Shown here piece after piece: positions 9,201-24,493 of a DNA stretch of 64,000 nucleotides (the first letter of the stretch is position 1; each line of letters starts with the position of its first letter). The stretch comes from an uncultured Gammaproteobacteria bacterium (lineage in GTDB: Bacteria; Patescibacteriota; Microgenomatia; PFEM01; DATLAM01): NCBI GenBank assembly GCA_964566925.1, contig CAZMIZ010000002.1, positions 8,647 through 72,646 of the forward strand. The letters run 5' to 3'. The notes beneath the pieces are model-generated. The model saw only the letters and a program-made list of their open reading frames with translations, made no database searches and was not told the DNA's origin. The translations under genes were made by a program, and so were the position numbers.

Positions 9201-9731
9201 ATGGATGAGAAGAAAGGGCGATCAGAGGGACGGCCTCCAAAAGAAAAAGGACCTAAATCTTATGTGATGAAGGTGCCACCTTGGGCAGTTCTTTATGCAG
9301 ACCCTTTAATAGGAGTAACTTCTAAGGTGGGTTTAGTAAGAGATTTTTTTTCTTTGGAAGAGGTAGAGCCTCCAGAAGGAAAGGCCGAAAGACCAGTTGA
9401 AGAATTCGCCATGATCCGCTGTCTTCAGAGAGAAAGGCGGACCATCGGAGAAGAGAATGGAAGAAAGATTCGGTGGGATCGGGTCGAGTTCCAGGTGATG
9501 GAGAGAAACAACGGGGATGAGTTTCCAGTGACTAAATGGGGTTATTTTGCCACTCTAGAGCGGACAGAAGAAGAAAAGGAAGCCAGGGAGCCATTTCAAT
9601 ATTTAGGCGAAGATGGTTTTCGCAGCGGTCCGAGATTAAAAGAGAAACCTGCTCCGGGACTTCAACATCAATTTGTTATTTCTAAAAAACTAGCGCCCGT
9701 TGGCCAAAGAGGAAGGCCACTAAAAAGATAA
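9201..9731 (+). CDS. hypothetical protein
   Basis: 176-aa charged ORF with no recognisable motif, immediately 5' of the long ORF-free region. Confidence 0.35.
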   Translation: MDEKKGRSEGRPPKEKGPKSYVMKVPPWAVLYADPLIGVTSKVGLVRDFFSLEEVEPPEGKAERPVEEFAMIRCLQRERRTIGEENGRKIRWDRVEFQVMERNNGDEFPVTKWGYFATLERTEEEKEAREPFQYLGEDGFRSGPRLKEKPAPGLQHQFVISKKLAPVGQRGRPLKR

Positions 9732-10040
9732 TAAAATTTCTTCAAAAATTTTGATAAAGGTCTTCACTAGGGGAGAGAGGGGATTCACCAAGGCCGGAAA
9801 AAGGGAAATATCCTATAATAATTATCATGTTTTCACGAAAACTGCCCGATAATTTTCACGAAACGGCAGAAAATTTGTTAGACTGCCAATCACCGGAAGT
9901 TAGGCATAACCACTCCTCTCGGATGTTGATCTTTGAGTGAGAGACTTAGGTCAATTACTCCCTCTTCAGCTCCTTCCCATTTTTTTCGTTATCTAGGCAC
10001 GAAAAAGGGTAAAAAGGGCGATAAATAGCCAAAATCTCTT

Positions 10041-10060
10041 GATATAGTTTGATATAGTTT
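10041..10060. repeat. direct tandem decamer gatatagttt x2
   Basis: Exact 10-nt tandem duplication inside the ORF-free region. Confidence 0.6.
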
Positions 10061-10225
10061 CCAAAAGAGCATTGTGGATAAGTAGAGAGGTCCTTATTCA
10101 GTAATCGTTAATGGGGGTGATGAGGTGATGGTGGTCCCCAGACGATCTTTAAGAAGAGTTGGGGCTCTTGTTCCCCAGAGGAGGCCTATCTTATGGAAGA
10201 GGGTAAGAGAGTGGCGTCCTGACTT

Positions 10226-10255
10226 AATGTCGCACAATAATACTTTTGCGACATT
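10226..10255. promoter_or_regulatory. perfect 9-bp inverted repeat AATGTCGCA-N12-TGCGACATT
   Basis: Seen directly in the sequence. The ATGTCGCACAATA motif recurs at 10754-10766, next to the recombinase promoter. Confidence 0.5.
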
Positions 10256-10738
10256 ATGGAGAGGGCTTCTCTAGAGAAGAGGTTGGAATAAAAATCTTAA
10301 TGCCTTCTTATTAGGGCCTAATGATTAACTATCCTTTATTTTAGAATTTTTTATTTCTTATTTCTCTATTTTTGGCTGCTGACCAGTTTTTTTGTTTTTC
10401 AAATAAAACCCGAAAGAGCCCACTCCCCTACTATAGGATATATGTCTAAAAAACTGGAACAAAGTTTGCCAAAAAATAATAAAAAAATCAAAAAATAGCC
10501 AAAATTTTATTAAGCAAACGATTAGTTAGTCGCCCTGTTTTCAAATCAAGCCTTAGAAAGCATCTAAGAGGCTGGTCAGCTTCAAGAAGAATCGTTTTAA
10601 ACCTTAAAAAAGAGAGACTAAATGGAAATTTCAATCTTTTGGGAGAAATTTTTGGTCACCTCTGTTTATTTTTCTAAAAATTTTTGATTAGGCTGATTGC
10701 CGGATAATGATCGGCGAATAAACGTTAATAAAAAATTT

Positions 10739-10795
10739 ACCGACATTATTTTTATGTCGCACAATATTGACACTGAGCTGGTCGAAGTGTAAACT
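10739..10795 (+). promoter_or_regulatory. candidate promoter/operator of the recombinase gene
   Basis: Inverted repeat CGACAT-tattttt-ATGTCG (10741-10759), then TTGACA (10767-10772), a 17-nt spacer and TAAACT (10790-10795). The ATG at 10804 gives a very short leader. Confidence 0.4.
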
Positions 10796-10803
10796 ATAGA
10801 TTA

Positions 10804-11763
10804 ATGGCTGCCCCAAAAGAAAAAAAATTACCGAGAAGCGAGTTAGATCAATTAATTGAAGAGTTTTTAGAGCATTTAGAAATTGAACGCCAGTGTTCCC
10901 CTCTTACTATCCGCAATTATCGTCATTATCTAGGCCGTTTTTCTGATTGGTTAAAGAAAAATAATCCCAAGGCTAAGGCGAGCTCAATAAATTTGGAAAT
11001 AATCAAAAAATATAGGGTATTTTTAGCCCGATTTATAGCCCCAAACGATGCCCCCCTTTCGCGTAGCACTCAAAGCTATCATGTGATAGCCTTGCGCGCT
11101 TTTTTGCGCTGGCTGGCCAAGCACGATTACCCCACCCTTTCACCTGAAAAGGTCGATCTTCCTAAAAGCGAATCACGTTCTTTAAAATTCCTTTCGGCCG
11201 ATCAAATGGAACATTTTTTAAACCAGCCGCGGATCTCAACTGACATCGGCTTGCGGGATAAGGCAATTTTAGAGGTTTTGTTTTCCACCGGCCTCCGAGT
11301 TAGCGAATTAGTTAAACTTAATCGTGATCAAATCGACTTAAAAAGACGAGAATTTGGCGTAGTGGGCAAAGGCGGCCGGGCTCGAGTTGTTTTTCTGTCG
11401 GAAAGAGCGGTTAAATGGTTGAAAAAATATCTTGACTCTCGTCAAGATTCTTGGAAGCCTTTATTTATTCATTATAAAGGCGGTAAAGACGAAGGCAAAG
11501 ATGGTGGGAGGATGAGATTAACCGCCCGTTCGGTTCAGCGAATCGTGGAAAAATATTCCCAAAAAGCCAAACTACCAGTTAAAGCTACTCCTCATGTCAT
11601 TCGTCATTCTTTTGCCACCGATCTTTTGGTGGCCGGCGCTGATCTAAGAGCGGTTCAAGAGATGTTGGGCCACAAAAACATTTCCACCACCCAGATTTAT
11701 ACTCACGTCACTAACCGCCAGCTCCGTTCAATCCATCAGGCGTTTCATGGCAAAGGGAGATAA
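10804..11763 (+). CDS. tyrosine site-specific recombinase, XerC/XerD-like
   Basis: N-terminal SAM-like core-binding region (LTIRNYRHYL). C-terminal catalytic region ATPHVIRHSFATDLLVAGADLRAVQEMLGHKNISTTQIYTHV carrying the R..H..R..Y motif. Confidence 0.8.
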   Translation: MAAPKEKKLPRSELDQLIEEFLEHLEIERQCSPLTIRNYRHYLGRFSDWLKKNNPKAKASSINLEIIKKYRVFLARFIAPNDAPLSRSTQSYHVIALRAFLRWLAKHDYPTLSPEKVDLPKSESRSLKFLSADQMEHFLNQPRISTDIGLRDKAILEVLFSTGLRVSELVKLNRDQIDLKRREFGVVGKGGRARVVFLSERAVKWLKKYLDSRQDSWKPLFIHYKGGKDEGKDGGRMRLTARSVQRIVEKYSQKAKLPVKATPHVIRHSFATDLLVAGADLRAVQEMLGHKNISTTQIYTHVTNRQLRSIHQAFHGKGR

Positions 11764-11764
11764 T

Positions 11765-12460
11765 TTATCCTGAGCTTGTCGAAGGAGGGGAAGTAACTTG
11801 GTTTTCCTCATTCTCAAGTAGCCCTAATTCGCTGGCTTTTTTAATTGCATCCGGTATATTATCAACTCCCAGTTTGGCAAGGATCCCACCGGAGCCTGGC
11901 TTCTCTCTTCTTGGCGAATAAAGGCTGTTATGAACGCCTGAGTAAGTCATATCTAAACATTGGGCAGTTTTTCTAATCGATTTTCCTTCTGACATCGCTT
12001 TTAAAATTTCTAGCTGACTAGGAGCAAAAGGAAATGCAGCGGCCTTGGCTTCCCTAGCTCGAGCTCTTGATTCTAAGATTTTCTCTAAAAGCTCGTCTAG
12101 TCTTTTGCTGGGTCTTGAGTTTTCATAGACCTTGGATTGAACTGCTTCCAGGAATTTTTGGTGGACAGTTTCTAGGGAAAATTTTTCATCTTCGAGATAA
12201 GAAGAAATGAGGGCCCACCAAAAACAAATAGTGACCACTGCTCTTCCTATTCTTCCTGGGCATTCCAGCTTACTAAAAATCGAGCTTGTATGATTTTTAA
12301 CCGTGCCGTTTTTGATCCCAAGTGCTACCCCGATTTCCTCGTTAGAGAGGCCTTTGGCCATAAGCGCGCAGACACTGAATTCGGTCTCAGAAAATGGAGA
12401 GAATTTTTCTTTCTCAGGTTGATGATTAAAATTTTCTGGTACTTCTATTTCTGCTGACAT
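11765..12460 (-). CDS. transcriptional regulator with two LuxR/GerE-type HTH domains
   Basis: First HTH: CALMAKGLSNEEIGVALGIKNGTVKNHTSSIFSKL. Second HTH: ILKAMSEGKSIRKTAQCLDMTYSGVHNSL...ILAKLGV. No receiver or autoinducer domain is visible. Confidence 0.65.
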   Translation of the reverse strand: MSAEIEVPENFNHQPEKEKFSPFSETEFSVCALMAKGLSNEEIGVALGIKNGTVKNHTSSIFSKLECPGRIGRAVVTICFWWALISSYLEDEKFSLETVHQKFLEAVQSKVYENSRPSKRLDELLEKILESRARAREAKAAAFPFAPSQLEILKAMSEGKSIRKTAQCLDMTYSGVHNSLYSPRREKPGSGGILAKLGVDNIPDAIKKASELGLLENEENQVTSPPSTSSG

Positions 12461-12491: not shown

Positions 12492-14480
12492 TCAGATAAT
12501 AAAATCATAGGGATATCGACTGCTACCAGCGGCCAGGTAGAATTTCCTTTTCCATTTAGCGTCAAAATAAACTTCTCCCTGTGGCTTATCTTCTCTAGAA
12601 AGCCTTTTGGCTAGACGGAAATCGAATTTAGACCCTAATCCCCAAGTGGGCATCAGGAAAAAGAGAGTCGAAACCCGGCTTCTAATGATCAGGTTTCGGA
12701 TTTTTCTATTACCTACAGTCGTGGCGGTTAATTGATCCGGGATGGCGAGGTAATGTCCGATTTTCGGCCAGACTAACCAGCGCATGGCCGTAGACATGTC
12801 AACCTGGCTGACAAGTTCAATAAATTTGGTTGCTCCTAATCTCAAACCTACCGGGGCAATCCAGCCGCCGGTGAAACCAAGGGCAGCCCGTTGAAGGCGG
12901 GCTTCAGGCAAAGCCAGAGCACTCAGATAACTGCCGATCTCAAAAAAATCGGCCCCCCTGGCAATGACCTGGTAGGTTAGGAAAGTGGCAAGATAAACAC
13001 TCATTTCTTTCCGGCTAAGACTTTGTAGAGAAACTTGTTTTTTTAATTTTTCCAACTCTTCAATGGTGATTGCCCCATGTTTTTGGGTATTTTTGGCTCC
13101 GCCAAGGACAAAATAGCGAGTGATTTCTTCCAAATTTCGGAATTGGGGGTCGGTGGTTAGTCGTTGCATCCAGGCTGGCATGATCCTGCCACCGACAGTA
13201 TTAAGAATTAGGCTGGAGTTTGATTCTAACTGGTTGTTTATCCCGATTCTTTCTTTTTCTTGAAGAGTTTTGACCTGTCTTTTTCTGAACCTTTCCCAAG
13301 ACGCCTCTCTTCTGGCCGAAATAAACAAGCCATGACTTGCCCATAGACGGTATTGTGTATCGAGGAGGAACATCACCGGTCGGATGCCGAACAAGCGGGC
13401 CAGAAGAAGAAGCTTTTCTGACTCTTCTATTTTTTCAACTACTGATTCGGGAACATCGCCTGATTCCCTCCAGGCTTGGGCCCATTGATCTTTGACAGGG
13501 AGTTCGACAAGCCAGTCATGCTTCTCAAGAAGAGCATTATAAAGCGATAACCAACCTTGAAGTTCTTGATAGCCTTCTTCGCCCAGATTTTCAATCAGGC
13601 GAACCTGATTATTTTCTTCGGTAATCGCTTCTCGGCAGGCGGAGACATGAATTTTGTTAAAAGCTGGGGCGGGTTCACCATCTTTAGCTGTTTGTTGACA
13701 GATTTTTTTATGGAAAGGGAAATAAAAGGTAGGGACAACATAACCGCTAGGCCTCATTTTTATCCCCGGATGGACATCTAACCAGCAGACCCTTTTTTGA
13801 CCGTTGCCGCCGATGAGAACTAGATTTGATGGGGCCAAAGGGTTGTCTTGATGAATTTGAGCCGAAGGTTCGACTAAGCCAAACTGGCGACAAAATTCGG
13901 TCAAGTCGGCCTGGGCTTGGAAAATCTGGTTGATTTCCTCAAAAGTCTTAGGCGGTCTGAAACCATCAATTTTTTCGATTACTTGGCAATAGCCGGTTCC
14001 GGGAATGAAAGTGTAACCAACTGAATCAGGAAGATAATAGGTTTCTCCAAAATAACCATGGACCAATAATCTGAGGATTTTCTGACCAACATGTTCAAGC
14101 TGAGCTTCGGCTTCAAAGTGGCGCGGAAAAAAAGGATGAAGTCTTTCATGGGCCTTTCGCAAAAGCCTTAATGGTATCCCGTATCTTGATTTAGTTGGTA
14201 GAGCGGTTTTGATTACCCAAGGAAGCTCTGATAGCTTGATGACGTCTCCTCGGAATTGACCCTGGTCAACGCTTTCTATCTCACCGGCCATTGGTTGGTA
14301 TTGACAAGATCCCTCTGGAGACAGAGAATTTACCGTAAAAACAAGATTTTCTCCCTTATGGAGAGGGGCTTTTTCATAAATACCTCTTCCTGTTTCAATA
14401 TTGTTAATCATAGCAAATAAAAAACCCAAGCTTGGCTTGGGCATTGGGGCTATTTTAATATAGAAGGGGTTGATTTTCAA
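12492..14480 (-). CDS. large hypothetical protein (662 aa), no recognised family
   Basis: Long uninterrupted ORF, 16 nt downstream of the Rmt-like methyltransferase gene and 32 nt upstream of the LuxR gene, so probably co-transcribed with both. Weak kinase-fold-like stretches (LVHGYFGETYYL...IEKIDGF, WLDVHPG) are not diagnostic. Confidence 0.6.
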   Translation of the reverse strand: MKINPFYIKIAPMPKPSLGFLFAMINNIETGRGIYEKAPLHKGENLVFTVNSLSPEGSCQYQPMAGEIESVDQGQFRGDVIKLSELPWVIKTALPTKSRYGIPLRLLRKAHERLHPFFPRHFEAEAQLEHVGQKILRLLVHGYFGETYYLPDSVGYTFIPGTGYCQVIEKIDGFRPPKTFEEINQIFQAQADLTEFCRQFGLVEPSAQIHQDNPLAPSNLVLIGGNGQKRVCWLDVHPGIKMRPSGYVVPTFYFPFHKKICQQTAKDGEPAPAFNKIHVSACREAITEENNQVRLIENLGEEGYQELQGWLSLYNALLEKHDWLVELPVKDQWAQAWRESGDVPESVVEKIEESEKLLLLARLFGIRPVMFLLDTQYRLWASHGLFISARREASWERFRKRQVKTLQEKERIGINNQLESNSSLILNTVGGRIMPAWMQRLTTDPQFRNLEEITRYFVLGGAKNTQKHGAITIEELEKLKKQVSLQSLSRKEMSVYLATFLTYQVIARGADFFEIGSYLSALALPEARLQRAALGFTGGWIAPVGLRLGATKFIELVSQVDMSTAMRWLVWPKIGHYLAIPDQLTATTVGNRKIRNLIIRSRVSTLFFLMPTWGLGSKFDFRLAKRLSREDKPQGEVYFDAKWKRKFYLAAGSSRYPYDFII

Positions 14481-14495
14481 GGAAAACTATGAAGA

Positions 14496-15290
14496 TCATG
14501 GTTTTTCCAAACAAAAAGCCATTTCCGTGGGGAGCTTGATTTCTTTGACCGGCCAGTCCCTATCCTTAAGGATGCGACTAATAAGTTTCCGGTTTTGCTC
14601 CACCAAGCTGACCTTAGTATGTAAGCTCTCCGTAGGCAAGGTAATAACAATCTGTTTAACTTGGAGGGCATCCAGTAAAGGAAGGGTAATCCCTTCTCGG
14701 CGTTTTTCAAAACGATGAACCTCTTTCATAATCAGGGCTAAATCTGCTTTTTGATCCGGATATCTCACCAAAATGTCTTGAGCCATGGCTAATGGTGGCA
14801 ATCCCTGAAGAACAAAATAGTGGTTTAGAAACTCGACTCGCTTTTCGTGAATGTCAAAAGCAAAATATTGGGTGGTTAACGGCAGTTTCATCCAAGGAAA
14901 AGACAAGGGATGAAGGCCGCAGGCCAGATCCAGGATGACTTGGGGTTGGCCAGTAGTTTTGAAGAGTTTTTGATAAAACTTGTCTAAAATTGGTAAACGT
15001 TCTTTAGCAGAAGCGTGAGCCGCCATAATTTGGGCACAAGCTTTTTTAATCTCTTCCCTGTCTTTGGCAGTAAAAGCTTGGTCAAGGTATTTCTTAGCTT
15101 TTTCGTAGTCAGGATCACCAAGATAAGAAGCGACGATATTGTGGAGTTTTCTTTTAGCCTCTTTAATCGCCTCTTTTTGTTTTTTGCCTTTTCCGATTTC
15201 TGTTTTAATTAAATCCCTAATTGTTTCTTCGGCCGTTGACTGGTATTTCTTGGATTTTTTGATTTTAGCAACCCAGCTATCGAGATTCAT
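14496..15290 (-). CDS. 16S rRNA (guanine1405-N7)-methyltransferase, ArmA/RmtB/FmrO family (aminoglycoside-resistance type)
   Basis: Colinear matches to ArmA/RmtB: IKKSKKYQS, KRKLHNIVASYL, HASAKERLPILDKFYQKLF, the VILDLACGLHPLSF SAM-binding motif, YFAFDIHEKRVEFL, ADLALIMK and IVITLPTESLHTK. Confidence 0.75.
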   Translation of the reverse strand: MNLDSWVAKIKKSKKYQSTAEETIRDLIKTEIGKGKKQKEAIKEAKRKLHNIVASYLGDPDYEKAKKYLDQAFTAKDREEIKKACAQIMAAHASAKERLPILDKFYQKLFKTTGQPQVILDLACGLHPLSFPWMKLPLTTQYFAFDIHEKRVEFLNHYFVLQGLPPLAMAQDILVRYPDQKADLALIMKEVHRFEKRREGITLPLLDALQVKQIVITLPTESLHTKVSLVEQNRKLISRILKDRDWPVKEIKLPTEMAFCLEKP

Positions 15291-15319
15291 CAGAATATAT
15301 TATAATACGAATAAGTCTG

Positions 15320-16423
15320 ATGAGGAAGATAAACTATTTTAAAACCAAAAAAGGCAAAATTCCTTTGCCCACCTTTTTCCCGGATGCCACCCGGGCGGTG
15401 GTCAGAACCATTGACTCTGAAGATATTAAAAAGACCAAGACCCCAGGAATTTTGGTTAATACTTATCATCTTTATCGGGAATTAGGCGGAAAAGTCTTAG
15501 CCAAACACGGCGGTGTTCGCCAATTTATGGCCTGGGACGGCGCCGTTATTTCCGATTCCGGCGGCTTTCAGGTTTTGACTCTAGCTAAGGCCGCCACAAA
15601 AAAAGGTTCGGTGGTTGACGAGGGGGTTACTTTTCGGCCGGCCCGGGATAAGAAGATTCTTTTTACTCCCGAAAAATCAATTCGCTTTCAAATGGCTTTA
15701 AAAACGGACATGGTTATTGTTCTTGACGACTTTACTGAGCCTAAAGCAAATTATCAAAAAGCCAAAGAGACCGTTGATCGTTCTGTTCTTTGGGCGAGAC
15801 GCTCAAAAGAAGAATTTTTAAAATGCTGTGAGGAGGAGGGTTTGACCGAAAAAAATCGACCTTTTATCATGGCGGTGGTTCAGGGTGGTGATTACCTTGA
15901 TCTTAGGAAAGAATGCGCGGAGCGCTTGGCCGAAATTGGGTTTGATGCCTTTGGTTACGGCGGTTGGCCCCTCACCCCCGAGGGAAAGTTTGATTATCCA
16001 ACAGTTAAAGTAGTGGCTGATTCTGCTCCTGATGACTATTTTCTTTTTGGCTTGGGGGTGGGCAAACCCGAAGAGATTGTGGGTTGTATTGATTTGGGCT
16101 ATCATATGTTTGATTGTGTTTTGCCTACCCGAGATGCCCGCCACCGCCGGCTTTATGTTTACGAAGCAAATTCGCTTGACAAAATTAACATCCGTAAGCC
16201 CAAATTTTATTCCTTCTTTACACCGGACAAGGAAAAGTATTATCAAGATGATCAGCCGGTGAGTCAAGCCTGTGATTGTTTACTTTGCACCAAATATACC
16301 CGGGCCTATCTCGCCCATCTTTTCCGGATTGAAGAATCAACTGCTTTGCGCCTTTCAACCATCCATAATCTTCGTTTCTATTCTCTGTTGATGGAAAAAC
16401 TAAGGGAAGAAGTTAAGAAATAA
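15320..16423 (+). CDS. tgt: queuine tRNA-ribosyltransferase (tRNA-guanine transglycosylase)
   Basis: VISDSGGFQVLTLA catalytic region and the C-terminal zinc site CDCLLCTKYTRAYLAHL. Confidence 0.85.
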   Translation: MRKINYFKTKKGKIPLPTFFPDATRAVVRTIDSEDIKKTKTPGILVNTYHLYRELGGKVLAKHGGVRQFMAWDGAVISDSGGFQVLTLAKAATKKGSVVDEGVTFRPARDKKILFTPEKSIRFQMALKTDMVIVLDDFTEPKANYQKAKETVDRSVLWARRSKEEFLKCCEEEGLTEKNRPFIMAVVQGGDYLDLRKECAERLAEIGFDAFGYGGWPLTPEGKFDYPTVKVVADSAPDDYFLFGLGVGKPEEIVGCIDLGYHMFDCVLPTRDARHRRLYVYEANSLDKINIRKPKFYSFFTPDKEKYYQDDQPVSQACDCLLCTKYTRAYLAHLFRIEESTALRLSTIHNLRFYSLLMEKLREEVKK

Positions 16424-16430
16424 GGTTGAA

Positions 16431-19046
16431 TTACTTCTCTAAACAGGTCATCGCGGCCACCGAATCACCTTTTTTACTAAAGCGCATTAAAATGACTCCT
16501 TGAGTTGCCCGCCCGATTCGGGGGATGTTTTTAAGGGGCAGTTTAATTACTTGAGCCTTTTTACTGGTCAGAATAATTTCTTTGACTCCTTGGTTGACTA
16601 GCCGGGAAACAATAATTTTACCAGTTTTTTTGGTGACATCAGCGGCCTTAACCCCAATTCCGCCTCGTTTTTGCAAAGGATATTCTTTAATCGCCGTTCT
16701 TTTACCAAGACCATTTTCCATAATCACCAGAATGTCGCGAAAGAATTTCTTCCGCCGGTCAGCCGGCTTTTTAGGTTTAGCCGAAAAAACTTCCATCCCA
16801 ACAACAGAATCACCTGATTTTAACCGAATACCCCTGACTCCCATTGTGTCTCGACCCATCGGTCGGGTGTCATTCTCATTAAAATGAATTGATTTACCGA
16901 AATAAGTTACCAGGAGAAGGTGATCACTCCCGGTAGTTGGTTTGACCCAACAGAGCTCATCTCCTCTTCTGAGCTTAATCGCAATTAAGCCCGAGGAGCG
17001 AATATTGGCAAATTTTTCAAGGGTTGTTTTTTTGATTATCCCTTTTTTCGTGGTCATAAAAAGATATTTGAATTTTTTTCTTAAAGAAGCTTCTTTAAGA
17101 TTTAAAACCGCCTGGATTTCTTCTCCCTGGTCAATGTTGATTAAGTTAATAGCTGCTTGACCTTTGGAGGTGCGGGTTCCTTCGGGGATTTCCCAGGCCG
17201 GAATCGAAAAGACACGACCCTTATTGGTGAAAAATAGAATATCATCATGAGTTTCGCCGGTCATGAAATGGGCAATTTCATCGGCTTCTTTGGTAGCCAT
17301 TCCGGTGACCCCCTTGCCGCCGCGTCGCTGAGAACGATAAGTCCCTACCGGAATTCGTTTAATGTAGCCGGTTTTAGTGAGAGTAATTAGGCATTTTTCT
17401 TTTGGCACTAAATCTTTTTCTGAAAATTCTTCTATTGGCTGCTGGAAAACCTTCGTTCTTCGAGGATCAGCGTATTTTTTCTGAAGGGCAAGCAGTTCTT
17501 TTCTGATTAACCCTAAGATTTTATCGGGATGAGAAAGAAGGTCACTAAGATGAACAATCTGTTGGCCAATTTTTTGATATTCATCTTCAATTTTTTGTCG
17601 CTCTAGGGCGGCCAGTCTTCTTAGCCTCATTTCTAAAATGGCATTAGCCTGAATTTCGCTAAGCTTAAACTTTTTCATTAACCGGTTTTGGGCAATCTCC
17701 GGCGTTTTAGATCTTTTAATCGTGGCAATGACCTCGTCCAGATTATCAAGGGCGATCTTTAGGCCTTCTAGAATATGAGCCCGGTTTTTAGCCGCCTCAA
17801 GCTCAAAAATGCTTCGTCGACTGACTACCTGCTGACGATGTTTAATGTATTCAGTTAAAATCTGTTTTAAGGTTAAGGTTTGAGGAGTGCCATCTACTAA
17901 GGCGACCATATTAACCGGATAAGTAGTTTGCATCGGGGTGAACTTGTAAAGATTATTTAGAATTGCCTTTGGTCTTCCTTGGCGTTTAAGGTCTAAGACG
18001 ATCCGCATACCTCGCCTATCCGACTCGTCCCTTAAATCGGTGATCCCCGTGATTTTTTTGGTTCGGACCAGGTGAGCAATTTTTTTGACTAAATTGGCCT
18101 TGTTAACCTGGTAAGGGATTTCACTGACAATAATCTGGAAGCGCCCCCTCTTTTTTTCTTCAATTTCCGCTTTGGCGCGCATCAGAATTTTCCCCTTACC
18201 GGTAGTATATGCTTGGGCAATTTCGTTTCGATTGTAGATGGAGGCCCCGGTAGGAAAATCAGGTCCCTTAACATAGTGCATCAGCTGTTCAACCGTCGCT
18301 TCTGACTCAAAAGAGGCGGAAAGAGCGCTTTTGGCTAGACTTTTTATTTCAGTAAGTCCATTTTTTTGTCGGTTATTTTCGTCAAGGCTGATCTTTTGGA
18401 TATTAAAGTCGTTTTCTCTTTTAGTTGTTTTTTGGGGCAGAATAGCCTTCCCTTTTTTGAGCATAAAAATTATGGCGCCAACAATTTCACCCAAGTTATG
18501 AGGCGGGATTTTGGTGGCCATCCCTACAGCGATACCGTCCGATCCCATAAGAAGCAGATTAGGTAAAAGAGCAGGGAGAAAGGCGGGTTCTTTCAGGCTG
18601 CCGTCAAAATTCTCAATAAAACTCACCGTTTTTTTATCAAGATCGGCTAGTATCTCTGAAGTGATGGTAGCCATTCTGACTTCGGTATAACGCATGGCGG
18701 CGGCCGAATCGCCATCGATAGAGCCAAAATTACCCTGGCCATCAATTAAAGGATAGCGCATCGAGAAATCTTGGGCCAGGCGAACTAAGGAATCATAAAT
18801 GGCCATATCGCCGTGAGGGTGATATTTACCCATCGTTTCCCCTACGACTTTGGCGCTTTTAGTGTAGCGGGCAGAATGATAAAGGCCCATTTGTTGCATG
18901 GCGTAGAGAATTCTTCTATGAACCGGCTTCAAACCATCACGAACATCAGGGAGAGCCCGAGCGACAATAACACTCATGGCGTAGTCCAGATAGGACCTTT
19001 TCATTTCCTCAGTAATTGGTACTGGTTTAACTTTCCCAATCTTCAT
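16431..19046 (-). CDS. gyrA: DNA gyrase subunit A
   Basis: [32 protein letters not shown]... N-terminus, the AAMRYTE active-site Tyr region and C-terminal beta-pinwheel repeats. Confidence 0.95.
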
Positions 19047-19050
19047 AAAT

Positions 19051-19983
19051 TTAACTGATTAAAACTTTCTTTATTTCCGGAGTGATTTGCTTTTTGCGGG
19101 AAAGGCGGGGACCAATGTCAAGAAGGTTCTTCTCTCCCCGACCGCTAAAGGCTTGTTCAGCAATTTTTTTGTCCTGGTCATCAATATAAATCAAAACACT
19201 CTTTCCTTTTAAAATATCTGTGACCACGCAATAAATATGGTCCAATTTCTGCTCAGACTTAACTACCCGCATCGCTTTAATTAATTGAACTATCATTTTC
19301 AGAACTTTGTCTTGTTCGACTGTTTCAATCTGATTAATTAAAGTGTGTTTCCCGCCAAAGTCAGAAACTTTATAATCGACAGTAACAATCTGTTTTGGGG
19401 TTAAATGGCCGAGATTTGATTTTGCTTTAAATTGTTCGAAGGTTAATTTTTTAACGTCAAGACCAGTCTGCTTAGCCAGTTTTTGAACGGTTTTCCGATC
19501 CGGTTCAGCAGTAGTGGGTGACTTTAAGCCAAGCGTATCAGAAAGAATCGCTGCCAACATTAATTTAGCTGTTTTTGATTTTGGTTGAAGATTATTCTGT
19601 TGGAAATATTCGTAAACGATCGTACTTGATGACCCCCAGGGCCGAATATCAATTTTAATTGGTTTATTAAGATCAAGATGAACTCGGCGATGATCAATAA
19701 TTTCAATGATTTGATCAGCATCTAGACCTTCCAGCCTTTGGCTTTCCTCGTTATGATCAATTAAGATCACCTTGTCTTCTTTATTGATGTCTTTTTGACT
19801 AATCAAATCAGGCAGAGGAACCGAGAATTTATTAAAGACATATTGGGTTTCGTTATTAACTGGATCACACCGAACGGGAATAACGTTTTTTTGACCGAGA
19901 GCAGTTAAAAGGTCTGCATAAGCAATCGGGGCGACAATGGCGTCCAGATCTGGTTGGCGATGGCCGATGATATAGGTTTTCAT
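19051..19983 (-). CDS. ppaC: DHH-family manganese-dependent inorganic pyrophosphatase (family II PPase)
   Basis: [34 protein letters not shown] and [15 protein letters not shown] parallel the PpaC motifs. About 310 aa. Confidence 0.75.
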
Positions 19984-22753: not shown

Positions 22754-24493
22754 ATGCCCAATCCAACTGTCCAATCCCAGACTTCTTCTGTTCCGGAAAC
22801 GATTGCCGATGTTTTGGCGGCCGAAGGTGCCTTGACTCCGGCCCAGCTTGACCAAATTAAACTGGAGCATATCAACACCGGCAAAGATGTTAAGAAAATT
22901 ATTGTTGAACAAAACTTTGTTTCTGAAGATCAGTTGGCCCGTGCTTCCGCTCACTTTCACAATATTCCCTTTGTTAGTCTTGACGAGACTGGAATTGCCC
23001 CCGAAGCTTTAACCTATCTTCCCCAGGCAGTGGCCGAGCGATACAATCTAATTCCCTTTGGCTATAGTCGAGAGAAAAACGAGCTTTCGGTGGCCATGGT
23101 GGATCCCCTAGATTTGGCGGCGATCGAATTTCTCGAAAAAAAAGCAGGCACCAAGGTGAAGCCTTATCAGGCTACTCGGGAGGCGATCCAAAAAGCAATT
23201 AGTGAAAGGTATGCTAAAGGTCTGACGACTGAAGTTAAAGCGGCTCTTAAAGAAGCGGGCGAAGAGCCAACTCCAACAAAAGCGGTGGATATCACTAAAT
23301 TGGGAGAGGTAATTAGAGAGGCGCCGGTTGCCAAGATTGTCTCGACCGTTCTCGAATTCGCTATCCGGGCTCGGGCATCTGATATCCATATCGAGCCTGA
23401 AGAAGATAAAACTCGAGTTCGCTATCGAATCGATGGTATCCTTCACGAAAAATTGATTTTACCAAAAAAGGTTCACGAGGCCGTTGTTTCCCGCATAAAA
23501 ATTCTCTCCGGAATGAAGATTGATGAGAAAAGAGTTCCTCAGGACGGAAGATTTAATTTCAAAGTGAGTGATAAAGAAGTTGATCTTCGGGTTTCCTGTT
23601 TGCCGACATCTCATGGTGAAAAGATTGTCATGAGGCTTCTTAAAAAGGGTGGTAAAATTCCCACTCTGCCTGATTTAGGCCTACGCGGGCGGGCGCTGAA
23701 TAACTTAGAGGAGGCGATTTTAAAGCCTCACGGAATTATTATTGTCTGTGGACCGACTGGCTCTGGGAAAACGACGACCCTCTACTCGCTTCTTGATAAA
23801 ATTAACACGACAAAAATTAATATCATGACCCTGGAAGATCCGATTGAATATCGGATTATGGGTGTTAATCAGGTTCAGGTAAACCCTGGGGCTGGCTTGA
23901 CTTTTGCCTCGGGATTACGAAGCTTTGTTCGCCAAGATCCGGATGTGATTTTAGTGGGCGAGATTCGAGACCAAGAGACTACTGAATTGGCTGTTCAGGC
24001 CGCCTTGACTGGGCACCTCGTTTTCTCTACTCTTCATACCAATGATGCCGCCGGGGCCATTCCTAGACTTTTGGATTTAGGGGCAGAGCCTTTCTTACTT
24101 GCCTCGGCAATGACTTGTGTGGTTGGTCAACGAATTTGCCGTCGAATTTGTACTGCCTGCAAAGAGGCTTATAAACCGGAAGCGCCTGTAGCTGAAGATA
24201 TTAAAAAAATTCTTGACAAACTTTATAAAGAACCGGAGGGCGGTTTGAAGCTCTATCGGGGCAAGAAATGTCCTGAATGTAACAGCACTGGCTATTTTGG
24301 CCGAGTGGGAATATTTGAAGTTTTACCGATAACCGAAAAGGTAGGACGCCTGATTCTAGAACGATCGCCAGCCAGCGACATCGAAAAACAGGCGCTAGAA
24401 GAGGGTATGATTACCATGAAACAAGATGGCTATCTTAAAGTTTTAGAAGGAACGACAACAATTGAAGAAGTCCTTCGGGTAGCTGAAGAATAG
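22754..24493 (+). CDS. pilB: type IV pilus assembly ATPase PilB (GspE family)
   Basis: N-terminal GspII domain, Walker A CGPTGSGKTTT, Asp box, Walker B and a CxxC...CxxC tetracysteine motif. Confidence 0.9.
   Translation: MPNPTVQSQTSSVPETIADVLAAEGALTPAQLDQIKLEHINTGKDVKKIIVEQNFVSEDQLARASAHFHNIPFVSLDETGIAPEALTYLPQAVAERYNLIPFGYSREKNELSVAMVDPLDLAAIEFLEKKAGTKVKPYQATREAIQKAISERYAKGLTTEVKAALKEAGEEPTPTKAVDITKLGEVIREAPVAKIVSTVLEFAIRARASDIHIEPEEDKTRVRYRIDGILHEKLILPKKVHEAVVSRIKILSGMKIDEKRVPQDGRFNFKVSDKEVDLRVSCLPTSHGEKIVMRLLKKGGKIPTLPDLGLRGRALNNLEEAILKPHGIIIVCGPTGSGKTTTLYSLLDKINTTKINIMTLEDPIEYRIMGVNQVQVNPGAGLTFASGLRSFVRQDPDVILVGEIRDQETTELAVQAALTGHLVFSTLHTNDAAGAIPRLLDLGAEPFLLASAMTCVVGQRICRRICTACKEAYKPEAPVAEDIKKILDKLYKEPEGGLKLYRGKKCPECNSTGYFGRVGIFEVLPITEKVGRLILERSPASDIEKQALEEGMITMKQDGYLKVLEGTTTIEEVLRVAEE

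Follow-up and report, generated by a model that had tools for sequence, protein, structure and literature searches.

The closest described relatives of the gene examined here are the methyltransferases that modify N7 of G1405 in 16S rRNA, which include both producer-type enzymes, such as Sgm, and the acquired enzymes ArmA and Rmt. Engagement of the ribosome by one of them has been described in a cryo-EM and mutagenesis study of RmtC and the 30S subunit; in that work the K236E substitution in RmtC was found to lower MICs, and Leu was noted at the position of Met245 in some RmtC homologs (PMC10054953). Published annotation places a coding sequence for a tRNA-ribosyltransferase immediately upstream of rmtG on pKP13f (PMC3904158; reviewed in PMC9311965), and on pMY146-rmtE we find, after an IS91 element, a truncated tgt gene that overlaps the start of rmtE2.

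Here we analyze an fmrO gene carried on a 64-kb stretch of DNA (hereafter the window) from a CPR bacterium, together with the genes that surround it (Table 1). The original prediction for this gene was that it encodes a 16S rRNA m7G1405 methyltransferase of the aminoglycoside-resistance type, acquired horizontally by a reduced-genome host, possibly for self-protection. What appears to be new, judging from sequence, is a paralogous subfamily of the family, which we call type B, in an unusual host and arrangement.

Table 1 Features of the window at and around fmrO
Feature	Position	Strand	Remarks
xer, XerC/D-type tyrosine recombinase	10804..11763	+	Backbone gene; flanks the variable slot in every relative examined
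LuxR/GerE-type HTH regulator	11765..12460	-	Lies in the variable slot; L012 has a GerE gene at the same position
Unassigned 662-aa ORF	12492..14480	-	Co-directional with fmrO and immediately 3′ of it; part of the gyrA–xer insert
fmrO, type B	14496..15290	-	ATG start; 264 aa; SAM-dependent methyltransferase, FmrO/Arm (Kgm) family
Spacer separating the divergent start codons of fmrO and tgt	15291..15319	.	29 bp; holds the palindrome ATTATAAT
tgt, tRNA-guanine transglycosylase	15320..16423	+	Native CPR-type; divergent from fmrO
gyrA	16431..19046	-	Conserved backbone; other slot boundary; used for lineage assignment

Results

The window fmrO encodes an intact member of the FmrO/Arm family

The translation of the window fmrO contains every motif that had been named for it (KKSKKY, KRKLHNIVASYL, AKERLPILDKFYQKLF, ILDLACGLHPL, YFAFDIHEKRVEFL, ADLALIMK and IVITLPTESL). 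In an HMM search the FmrO profile of Pfam (PF07091), whose gathering score is 27, gave 162.9 bits, with residues 12–256 of the protein spanning positions 1–250 of the 255 in the profile; this full-length match greatly exceeds what chance would produce and bears out the proposed membership in the FmrO/Arm family. When PDB sequences were searched with phmmer, Sgm (3lcu) was the best match, full-length (E = 1.7e-40), and RmtC, RmtB, RmtF and ArmA ranked below it. An AlphaFold2 model, for which 38 homologs served as input, reached a pLDDT of 93.9 and a pTM of 0.90; compared with the PDB using Foldseek, it aligned to Sgm with a TM score of 0.87 and to RmtC, RmtB and RmtF with scores of 0.79–0.82. 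ArmA aligned over part of the model only (TM 0.59), and beyond ArmA the matches were generic Rossmann methyltransferases with TM scores of at most 0.51. The fold predicted by these two methods comprises a helical N1/N2 domain and a class I Rossmann SAM-methyltransferase domain, and the close structural neighbors of the predicted model are solved G1405 methyltransferases only. Together, the Pfam, PDB sequence, AlphaFold2 and Foldseek matches confirm the family and the fold, and the window fmrO is an intact, full-length relative of the pan-aminoglycoside-resistance ribosome methyltransferases.

The window protein lies outside the clade of characterized enzymes

We aligned the protein with RmtB1, RmtC, RmtE2, RmtF1, RmtH and ArmA (translated from annotated plasmids), with Sgm (taken from the PDB alignment) and with environmental homologs. 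Type A, to which all seven of the characterized enzymes belong (Sgm, RmtB, RmtC, RmtE, RmtF, RmtH and ArmA), has the motif K-(L/T)-L-P-x-L-E past the catalytic lysine and a loop of the form SFP-x-x-SLGG-(R/K)-x-KGM. Type B, which includes the window protein, has F/M-K-E-(A/V)-H-R-F-E and a loop that is one residue shorter and devoid of KGM; in the window protein the signature that follows the catalytic Lys reads K189-E-V-H-R-F-E195. An intermediate group, type C, has K-M-Y-H-C-L-E. A tree of 175 sequences, built by neighbor joining only (NumPy implementation, 200 bootstraps), recovers types A, B and C. The phylogeny upholds the placement within the FmrO family, but it sets the window protein outside the clade of proven enzymes, for in 197 of the 200 bootstraps it clustered with 90% or more of type B and with no member of type A. 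The exact split between A and B plus C was recovered in 147 of 200 bootstraps and the exact type-B split in 99 of 200.

Profiles curated for the resistance enzymes gave correspondingly low scores. NF000466, the NCBIfam equivalog for Rmt guanine(1405)-N(7) methyltransferases, requires 250 bits, of which the window protein reached 186.6, and the family-specific NCBIfam models for Rmt and ArmA gave it 59–96 bits where 500–550 are required. We also considered NF000466 as a means of separating types A and B and rejected it, as its scores form a gradient only (342 for RmtE2, 206–233 for type A from environmental operons and 174–201 for type B) and environmental members of both types fall under the cut-off. 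At the level of pairwise identity, the window protein is 26–32% identical to the characterized enzymes. Since the proven G1405 enzymes are themselves only 25–37% identical to one another, type B could still methylate G1405, and pairwise identity alone does not decide the function of the window protein. On sequence grounds, then, the window fmrO is a member of an uncharacterized paralogous clade and no ortholog of the proven resistance enzymes.

Catalytic and docking residues are kept and the h44-distorting loop is altered

We mapped residue roles from the RmtC–30S cryo-EM and mutagenesis study (PMC10054953) onto the alignment and scored their conservation over 62 type-B proteins. The set of residues that binds SAM and takes part in catalysis in RmtC (S107, D160, Y60 and K204) is present in the window protein as S94, D146, Y56 and K189, and the N1 set that docks on the 30S subunit (RmtC K20, Y21, R50 and H54) is present as K15, Y16, K46 and H50; across the 62 proteins the SAM-binding, catalytic and N1-docking residues are 90–100% conserved. 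The canonical form of the loop that distorts h44 (Loop237–246 of RmtC, with Arg241 and Met245; '...SLGG-R-x-KGM...') is absent from the window protein, in which the shortened type-B loop, with the motif TESLHT-KVSL, lies at 219–232. All type-B proteins (100%) have a gap in the Arg241 column, the exact placement of which is alignment-dependent; at the Met245 position 82% of type B have Leu, and 95% of type A have Met. Furthermore, His occupies the Pro/Thr207 position in 80% of type B, the window protein included, and the window protein has Glu221 where RmtC has Lys236. When mapped to RmtC, the departures of type B coincide with the parts of the enzyme by which h44 is distorted and G1405 and U1495 are flipped. 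The designation of the gene as an m7G1405 methyltransferase of the aminoglycoside-resistance type is therefore one that we do not retain: its product lies outside the characterized clade (197/200), does not have the canonical h44 loop and scores below the equivalog cut-off.

Type-B genes elsewhere follow tgt and a type-A paralog

For a census of genomic context we retrieved 80 metagenome loci by alignment to type B and classed the genes in them with purpose-built HMMs. Type A lies directly upstream of B on the same strand at 49 of the 66 assessable loci (74%), and TGT lies directly upstream of A at 30 of 33 assessable loci; at 15 of the 66 loci, type B occurs without any type-A gene in the retrieved flank. 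Contigs of those relatives that are 53–56% identical to the window protein carry a TP_methylase (RsmI-like) gene, a TGT gene and two FmrO genes in a cluster, usually in the order RsmI-like–TGT–FmrO_A–FmrO_B. Named matches to the type-B clusters come from Anaerolineae/Chloroflexi and from one cyanobacterium (Thalassoporum PCC 7367), and a literature search for FmrO in Chloroflexi or Anaerolineae found none. Because the tandem of A and B has been retained across many lineages, the two are probably non-redundant.

The family had been taken to be rare outside aminoglycoside producers and clinical plasmids. When 1.84 billion representative sequences, each standing for a cluster at 50% identity, were scanned exhaustively with HMMER, 1,503 FmrO-family clusters passed E ≤ 1e-3, of which 1,041 also passed E ≤ 1e-10 and 215 passed E ≤ 1e-30; a scan of metagenome contigs with a single motif yielded at least 564 confirmed stretches. 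These numbers are at odds with rarity. A word-indexed protein search returned 551 proteins, with named examples from Anaerolineae, Chloroflexi, Bellilinea and Thalassoporum PCC 7367.

fmrO and tgt occupy a variable slot in a Microgenomates backbone

The best named relatives of the GyrA and TGT proteins of the window are from Microgenomates/Patescibacteria, and the guess that the host is a reduced-genome CPR bacterium thus proved correct. The genes of the window are ordered TPR–yebC–DUF5656–...–xer(+)–LuxR(−)–662-aa ORF(−)–fmrO(−)–tgt(+)–gyrA(−)–DHH/DHHA2(−)–gyrB(−)–holB(−)–pilB(+), and Pfam matches elsewhere in the window include DUF5656 and a PilB-type ATPase. Relatives whose GyrA is 72–79% identical keep the backbone pilB–holB–gyrB–(pyrophosphatase)–gyrA–[slot]–xer–...–DUF5656–yebC–TPR and differ in what the slot holds: it is empty in L011, contains only a GerE regulator in L012 and contains a Bac_transf gene and a 247-aa ORF in L008–L010. 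Since the backbone is kept while the slot contents differ, xer belongs to the conserved backbone and marks one end of a variable slot. The recombinase that had been placed next to fmrO is two genes (2.7 kb) away, and, being kept in all relatives examined, it does not serve as the sign of mobility for which it was taken. Moreover, beside the window fmrO, whose neighbors are tgt, gyrA, gyrB, xer and yebC, there is no IS, ISCR, transposon, integron or plasmid backbone.

The 662-aa ORF of the slot, called as 650 aa on an identical Logan contig, has no match in Pfam, NCBIfam or PADLOC, and in the 79% relative a Bac_transf gene takes its place. With PADLOC, Pfam and NCBIfam blank for this ORF, we found no support for the slot being a defense system. 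The window contains no second FmrO gene and so no type-A paralog, and the scanned genes adjoining fmrO include no rsmI-like gene. A type-A gene could lie beyond the 64 kb, elsewhere in the genome.

The divergent tgt–fmrO pair is kept on the identical Logan contig and on the contigs that carry the 91% and 79% orthologs of fmrO, and at the latter two loci the spacer is also 29 bp long and retains the palindromic ATTATAAT, in which a −10-like TATAAT can be read on either strand. These features raise the possibility of a shared, bidirectional promoter through which tgt and fmrO would be co-regulated; because a scan for σ70 promoters reported no site in the 29-bp spacer, this suggestion comes from the palindromic −10-like box only. 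In the nearest Microgenomates, fmrO is absent both from the gyrA–xer slot and from beside tgt, and the TGTs that are 75–76% identical to that of the window adjoin a YibE_F gene elsewhere, with no FmrO nearby. The tgt–fmrO pair in the gyrA–xer slot is specific to one Microgenomates sub-lineage.

fmrO was probably acquired long ago, without tgt

Identity to the GyrA of the window declines as a smooth continuum from 83% to 64%, and identity to its TGT likewise from 81% to 64%, whereas identity to its FmrO falls abruptly from 79% to 56%, the next matches being on non-CPR contigs. The window FmrO is 53–56% identical to the type-B genes of three loci (L006, L007 and L103). The discordance in identity between FmrO and TGT, together with the patchy distribution of the gene, indicates that fmrO was acquired horizontally without tgt. 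Horizontal acquisition, which had been proposed from the start, is accordingly supported, both by the absence of the gene from the slot in relatives and by the identities to proteins of non-CPR contigs (53–56% for FmrO versus 36–41% for TGT). Co-transfer of tgt with fmrO was considered and rejected, as the tgt of the window is of the CPR type: its product shares 65–76% identity with TGTs of Microgenomates/Patescibacteria but 36–41% with those encoded in the non-CPR fmrO operons.

As to the age of the transfer, the GC and GC3 contents of fmrO are within 1 s.d. of those of the window genes, and recent transfer was rejected in that this compositional test shows no anomaly. Relative to the 91% and 79% orthologs, dN/dS is 0.07–0.10 for fmrO and 0.04–0.06 for tgt. 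The normal GC content, the dN/dS of about 0.1 and the synteny kept in the 79–91% orthologs indicate that the acquisition is old. Type B alone was thus gained long ago by a Microgenomates sub-lineage and then held under purifying selection.

Plasmids carry relatives of type A, and protection against aminoglycosides is not indicated

A tblastn search of 72,556 plasmids with the window FmrO returned 1,587 records, all under 60% identity. Among the matches listed, identities were 24.8–30.9%, which is below the 41–56% of type-B relatives, and we conclude that, as far as these matches go, none of the 72,556 plasmids carries a type-B gene. The type-A paralogs of the environmental operons find their best match among the named clinical families in RmtE, and the tgt fragment of pMY146-rmtE is 49–50% identical to the operon TGTs. 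We also considered whether a 105-aa hypothetical protein encoded 3′ of rmtE2 on that plasmid could be a truncated type B; it is lipoprotein-like and has no similarity to FmrO, and this candidate was rejected.

According to a recent preprint, CPR bacteria, which are fermentative, probably take up aminoglycosides poorly, and one CPR grm-like gene, which may or may not correspond to the window gene, caused no change in MIC in E. coli (bioRxiv 10.64898/2026.07.13.738296). The passages on this MIC result mention no check of protein expression. The suggestion that the window gene affords self-protection against aminoglycosides is unsupported, given that none of the 72,556 plasmids has type B (among the matches listed), that the MIC was unchanged with the grm-like CPR gene, and that the acquisition is old.

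Discussion

Our preferred reading, which we put forward tentatively and with a little less than even confidence, is that type B carries out a housekeeping-type guanine-N7 methylation of 16S rRNA in the decoding center that is distinct from the G1405 reaction of type A. A distinct housekeeping methylation is favored by the setting of type B in most environmental genomes, next to type A, behind tgt and often close to an rsmI-like gene, and because retention of the A/B tandem implies that the two are probably non-redundant; the substrate, the target nucleotide, the co-regulation with tgt and the housekeeping role are what we infer. The window protein would be an active SAM-dependent guanine-N7 methyltransferase with the FmrO/Arm fold, the helical N-terminal domain of which would dock, as that of RmtC does, on the surface that h44, h45, h27 and h24 make up on the 30S subunit. 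Such docking is suggested by the conservation of K15, Y16, K39, K43, K46 and H50. S94 and D146 would hold SAM, Y56 would stack on the flipped guanine and K189 would position its N7, and the loop predicted to pry h44 open would act in altered form, one residue shorter, with the Arg241 position lost and Met245 replaced by Leu. The target of type B would be a nucleotide, or a state of the ribosome, other than that of type A's G1405 reaction, and type B would be no dedicated device for antibiotic self-protection. Finally, the Microgenomates lineage took B alone in an old transfer and kept it 29 bp from its native tgt. A further version of this proposal, which we consider possible and hold with more reserve, is that type B represents a new specificity class at the decoding center that works alongside a canonical G1405 enzyme (on a 16S rRNA nucleotide other than G1405, or on that site in another assembly state) and is functionally coupled to Tgt. 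The CPR lineage would then have captured this second activity alone and linked it to its own tgt by a shared bidirectional promoter of 29 bp.

The main alternative, possible though in our view doubtful, is that the window FmrO is instead a bona fide m7G1405 methyltransferase, with insensitivity of the ribosome to 4,6-disubstituted deoxystreptamine aminoglycosides being either its dedicated purpose or incidental to a housekeeping methylation. The full-length match to the family and fold, in which no structures but the solved G1405 enzymes come close, is what such an enzyme would show, as is an identity to the known enzymes (26–32%) that is in the range found among those enzymes; against this, the protein stands outside the clade of all proven enzymes and below the curated equivalog cut-off. 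Similarly, RmtC residues Y60, K204, D160 and S107 and the docking residues K20, Y21 and H54 are conserved, but the h44 loop departs from the canonical form, with Arg241 missing and Glu in place of Lys236, a substitution (K236E) that lowers MICs in RmtC. The loci themselves point both ways. Type B is found without A nearby in the window and at 15 of 66 loci, an observation that runs counter to our preferred reading and fits a self-sufficient G1405 enzyme, yet a canonical paralog stands in tandem with it at 74% of loci, which makes an identical function less likely. The lack of a plasmid type B (among the matches listed), when neighboring A genes were mobilized with tgt remnants, also weighs against this alternative, as do the physiology of CPR bacteria and the negative MIC test of a CPR grm-like gene, one that may or may not correspond to the window gene.

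We judge it unlikely that the window FmrO methylates an RNA of another class, for example a tRNA substrate of Tgt or 23S rRNA, with the linkage to tgt reflecting a shared tRNA-modification pathway. The adjacency of fmrO and tgt is persistent across phyla, the CPR adjacency to a native tgt appears to be independent of the operon arrangement, and Tgt and m7G methyltransferases both act at or replace position 7 of guanine. However, the N-terminal residues that dock RmtC on h44/h45/h27 of 16S rRNA are conserved in type B, rsmI-like genes (16S C1402) also occur near type B in environmental clusters, and we know of no FmrO-family member that acts on tRNA. That the gene is a relic of horizontal transfer, decaying or without function, as its patchy distribution in Microgenomates and the absence of a type-A partner from the window might suggest, is highly improbable in view of its intact ORF, its intact catalytic residues, its confidently predicted fold and a dN/dS (0.07–0.10) similar to that of tgt.

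Automated JGI names call the gene "16S rRNA (guanine(1405)-N(7))-methyltransferase". We regard this G1405 label as an over-call, with which resistome surveys would tally pan-aminoglycoside resistance in CPR bacteria, when the RNA-opening loop of type B is unlike that of every proven enzyme. If it is true that B has a target of its own, it would represent a new ribosome-modification activity that is widespread among sampled environmental bacteria. The tgt–A–B cluster is, in addition, a lead on the origin of clinical genes of the rmtE/rmtG type: as rmtE and rmtG still bear a tgt remnant, such clusters are a plausible source of them, and if type B has a new specificity the cluster would also mark the kind of genome from which rmtE, rmtG and rmtD-type genes were mobilized. 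For the biology of CPR bacteria, the locus is a case of a reduced genome that gained a gene for the translation apparatus which selection then retained.

Comparison with known systems

Sgm of Micromonospora zionensis, a producer-type m7G1405 enzyme (PDB 3lcu), resembles the window FmrO in its N1/N2 and Rossmann domains and in its SAM-binding, catalytic and docking residues. The two are only about 32% identical, however, and whereas Sgm belongs to clade A and has 'LLKTLPCLE' and 'TKSLGQRSKGM', the window protein belongs to clade B and has 'IMKEVHRFE' and the shorter loop 'TESLHTKVSL'. The acquired enzymes RmtA-H and ArmA, at 25–31% identity, share the Pfam family and the fold of the window protein, and rmtE2 and rmtG adjoin an upstream tgt gene or remnant much as the window fmrO lies beside tgt. 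Unlike these genes, which reside on clinical plasmids, that of the window is chromosomal, is located between gyrA and xer in a CPR bacterium and encodes a different h44-distorting loop. The nearest parallel is with the tgt–fmrO_A–fmrO_B clusters, to whose third gene, type B, the window gene is 53–56% identical, with all type-B signatures and with tgt adjoining. In the clusters a co-directional tgt lies upstream of type A, often with an rsmI-like gene, whereas in the window a divergent, CPR-type tgt adjoins type B, with no type A within 64 kb and no rsmI-like gene among the scanned genes next to fmrO.

Variable sites flanking gyrA and xer

The gene family that occupies the slot between gyrB and gyrA varies among the window and L008, L011 and L012, which are contigs of Microgenomates relatives (see table). 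In particular, the window gene in this slot, whose GC content is low (z about −2), encodes a DHH/DHHA2 protein that we read as family-II-pyrophosphatase-like, and the gyrB–gyrA locus looks like a case of non-orthologous replacement, repeated at one site. Intein domains (PF14528 and PF14890) are present in several GyrA homologues of ~1,300 aa; the intein-carrying homologues P0143, P0155, P0208, P0214 and P0232 are 62–69% identical to the GyrA of the window, which is 871 aa long and intein-free.

Just upstream of xer, which encodes the XerC/D-type tyrosine recombinase, the window contains ~1 kb (9731–10804) without any ORF of at least 120 aa, and the minimum GC of the window (0.354) is found at 10001–11000. 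The matching position in the relatives holds several small unannotated ORFs (37–139 aa). Because L012 carries both a second Xer-like recombinase gene and a PycTM gene beyond xer, the xer neighbourhood may be an integration or defence hotspot in the Microgenomates lineage of the window.

Features of the window, of contigs from its relatives and of a clinical plasmid
Feature	Location	Strand	Context
662-aa ORF	window 12492–14480	−	directly downstream of fmrO
DHH/DHHA2 protein gene	window 19051–19983	−	gyrB–gyrA slot
Soluble family-I pyrophosphatase (PF00719)	L011 9450–10004		gyrB–gyrA slot
Soluble family-I pyrophosphatase (PF00719)	L012 9435–9986		gyrB–gyrA slot
Membrane H+-PPase	L008 2333–4432		gyrB–gyrA slot
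PilB-type ATPase (Pfam)	window 22754–24493	+	
Second Xer-like recombinase and PycTM (Pycsar effector-type) gene	L012 15575–17669 (GCA_012975005.1 contig)		beyond xer
tgt truncated to its 3′ part (232 aa)	L013 3313–4822 region (plasmid pMY146-rmtE, NZ_LC511995.1)		

A probable type IV pilus cluster and the ORF 3′ of fmrO

Plus-strand ORFs continue after PilB to about 35200. The Pfam scan of this region covered PilB only; judging by synteny with L011 and L012, the ORFs that follow probably belong to a type IV pilus cluster and encode PilT, PilC, a prepilin peptidase and pilins.

The 662-aa ORF had no match in Pfam, NCBIfam or PADLOC, and was not found at the related loci examined. Its 5′ end is overlapped by a terminator-like hairpin (14442–14424), and on an identical Logan contig the gene call begins at an ATG at ~14444, giving 650 aa.

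FmrO type C and the tgt remnant at rmtE2

A third FmrO sub-type, type C, accounts for 19 of the 175 sequences in the tree (P0373, P0377, P0379, P0386 and P0396 among them) and is intermediate between types A and B. Its members have the motif K-M-Y-H-C-L-E and a loop that is as long as that of type A but lacks KGM.

On the clinical plasmid pMY146-rmtE, an IS91-family transposase gene is followed directly by the truncated tgt, which overlaps the start codon of rmtE2. The plasmid tgt fragment is 49–50% identical to the TGTs of the environmental clusters with the order tgt–fmrO_A–fmrO_B, and the plasmid arrangement keeps the tgt-to-fmrO_A junction of its progenitor.
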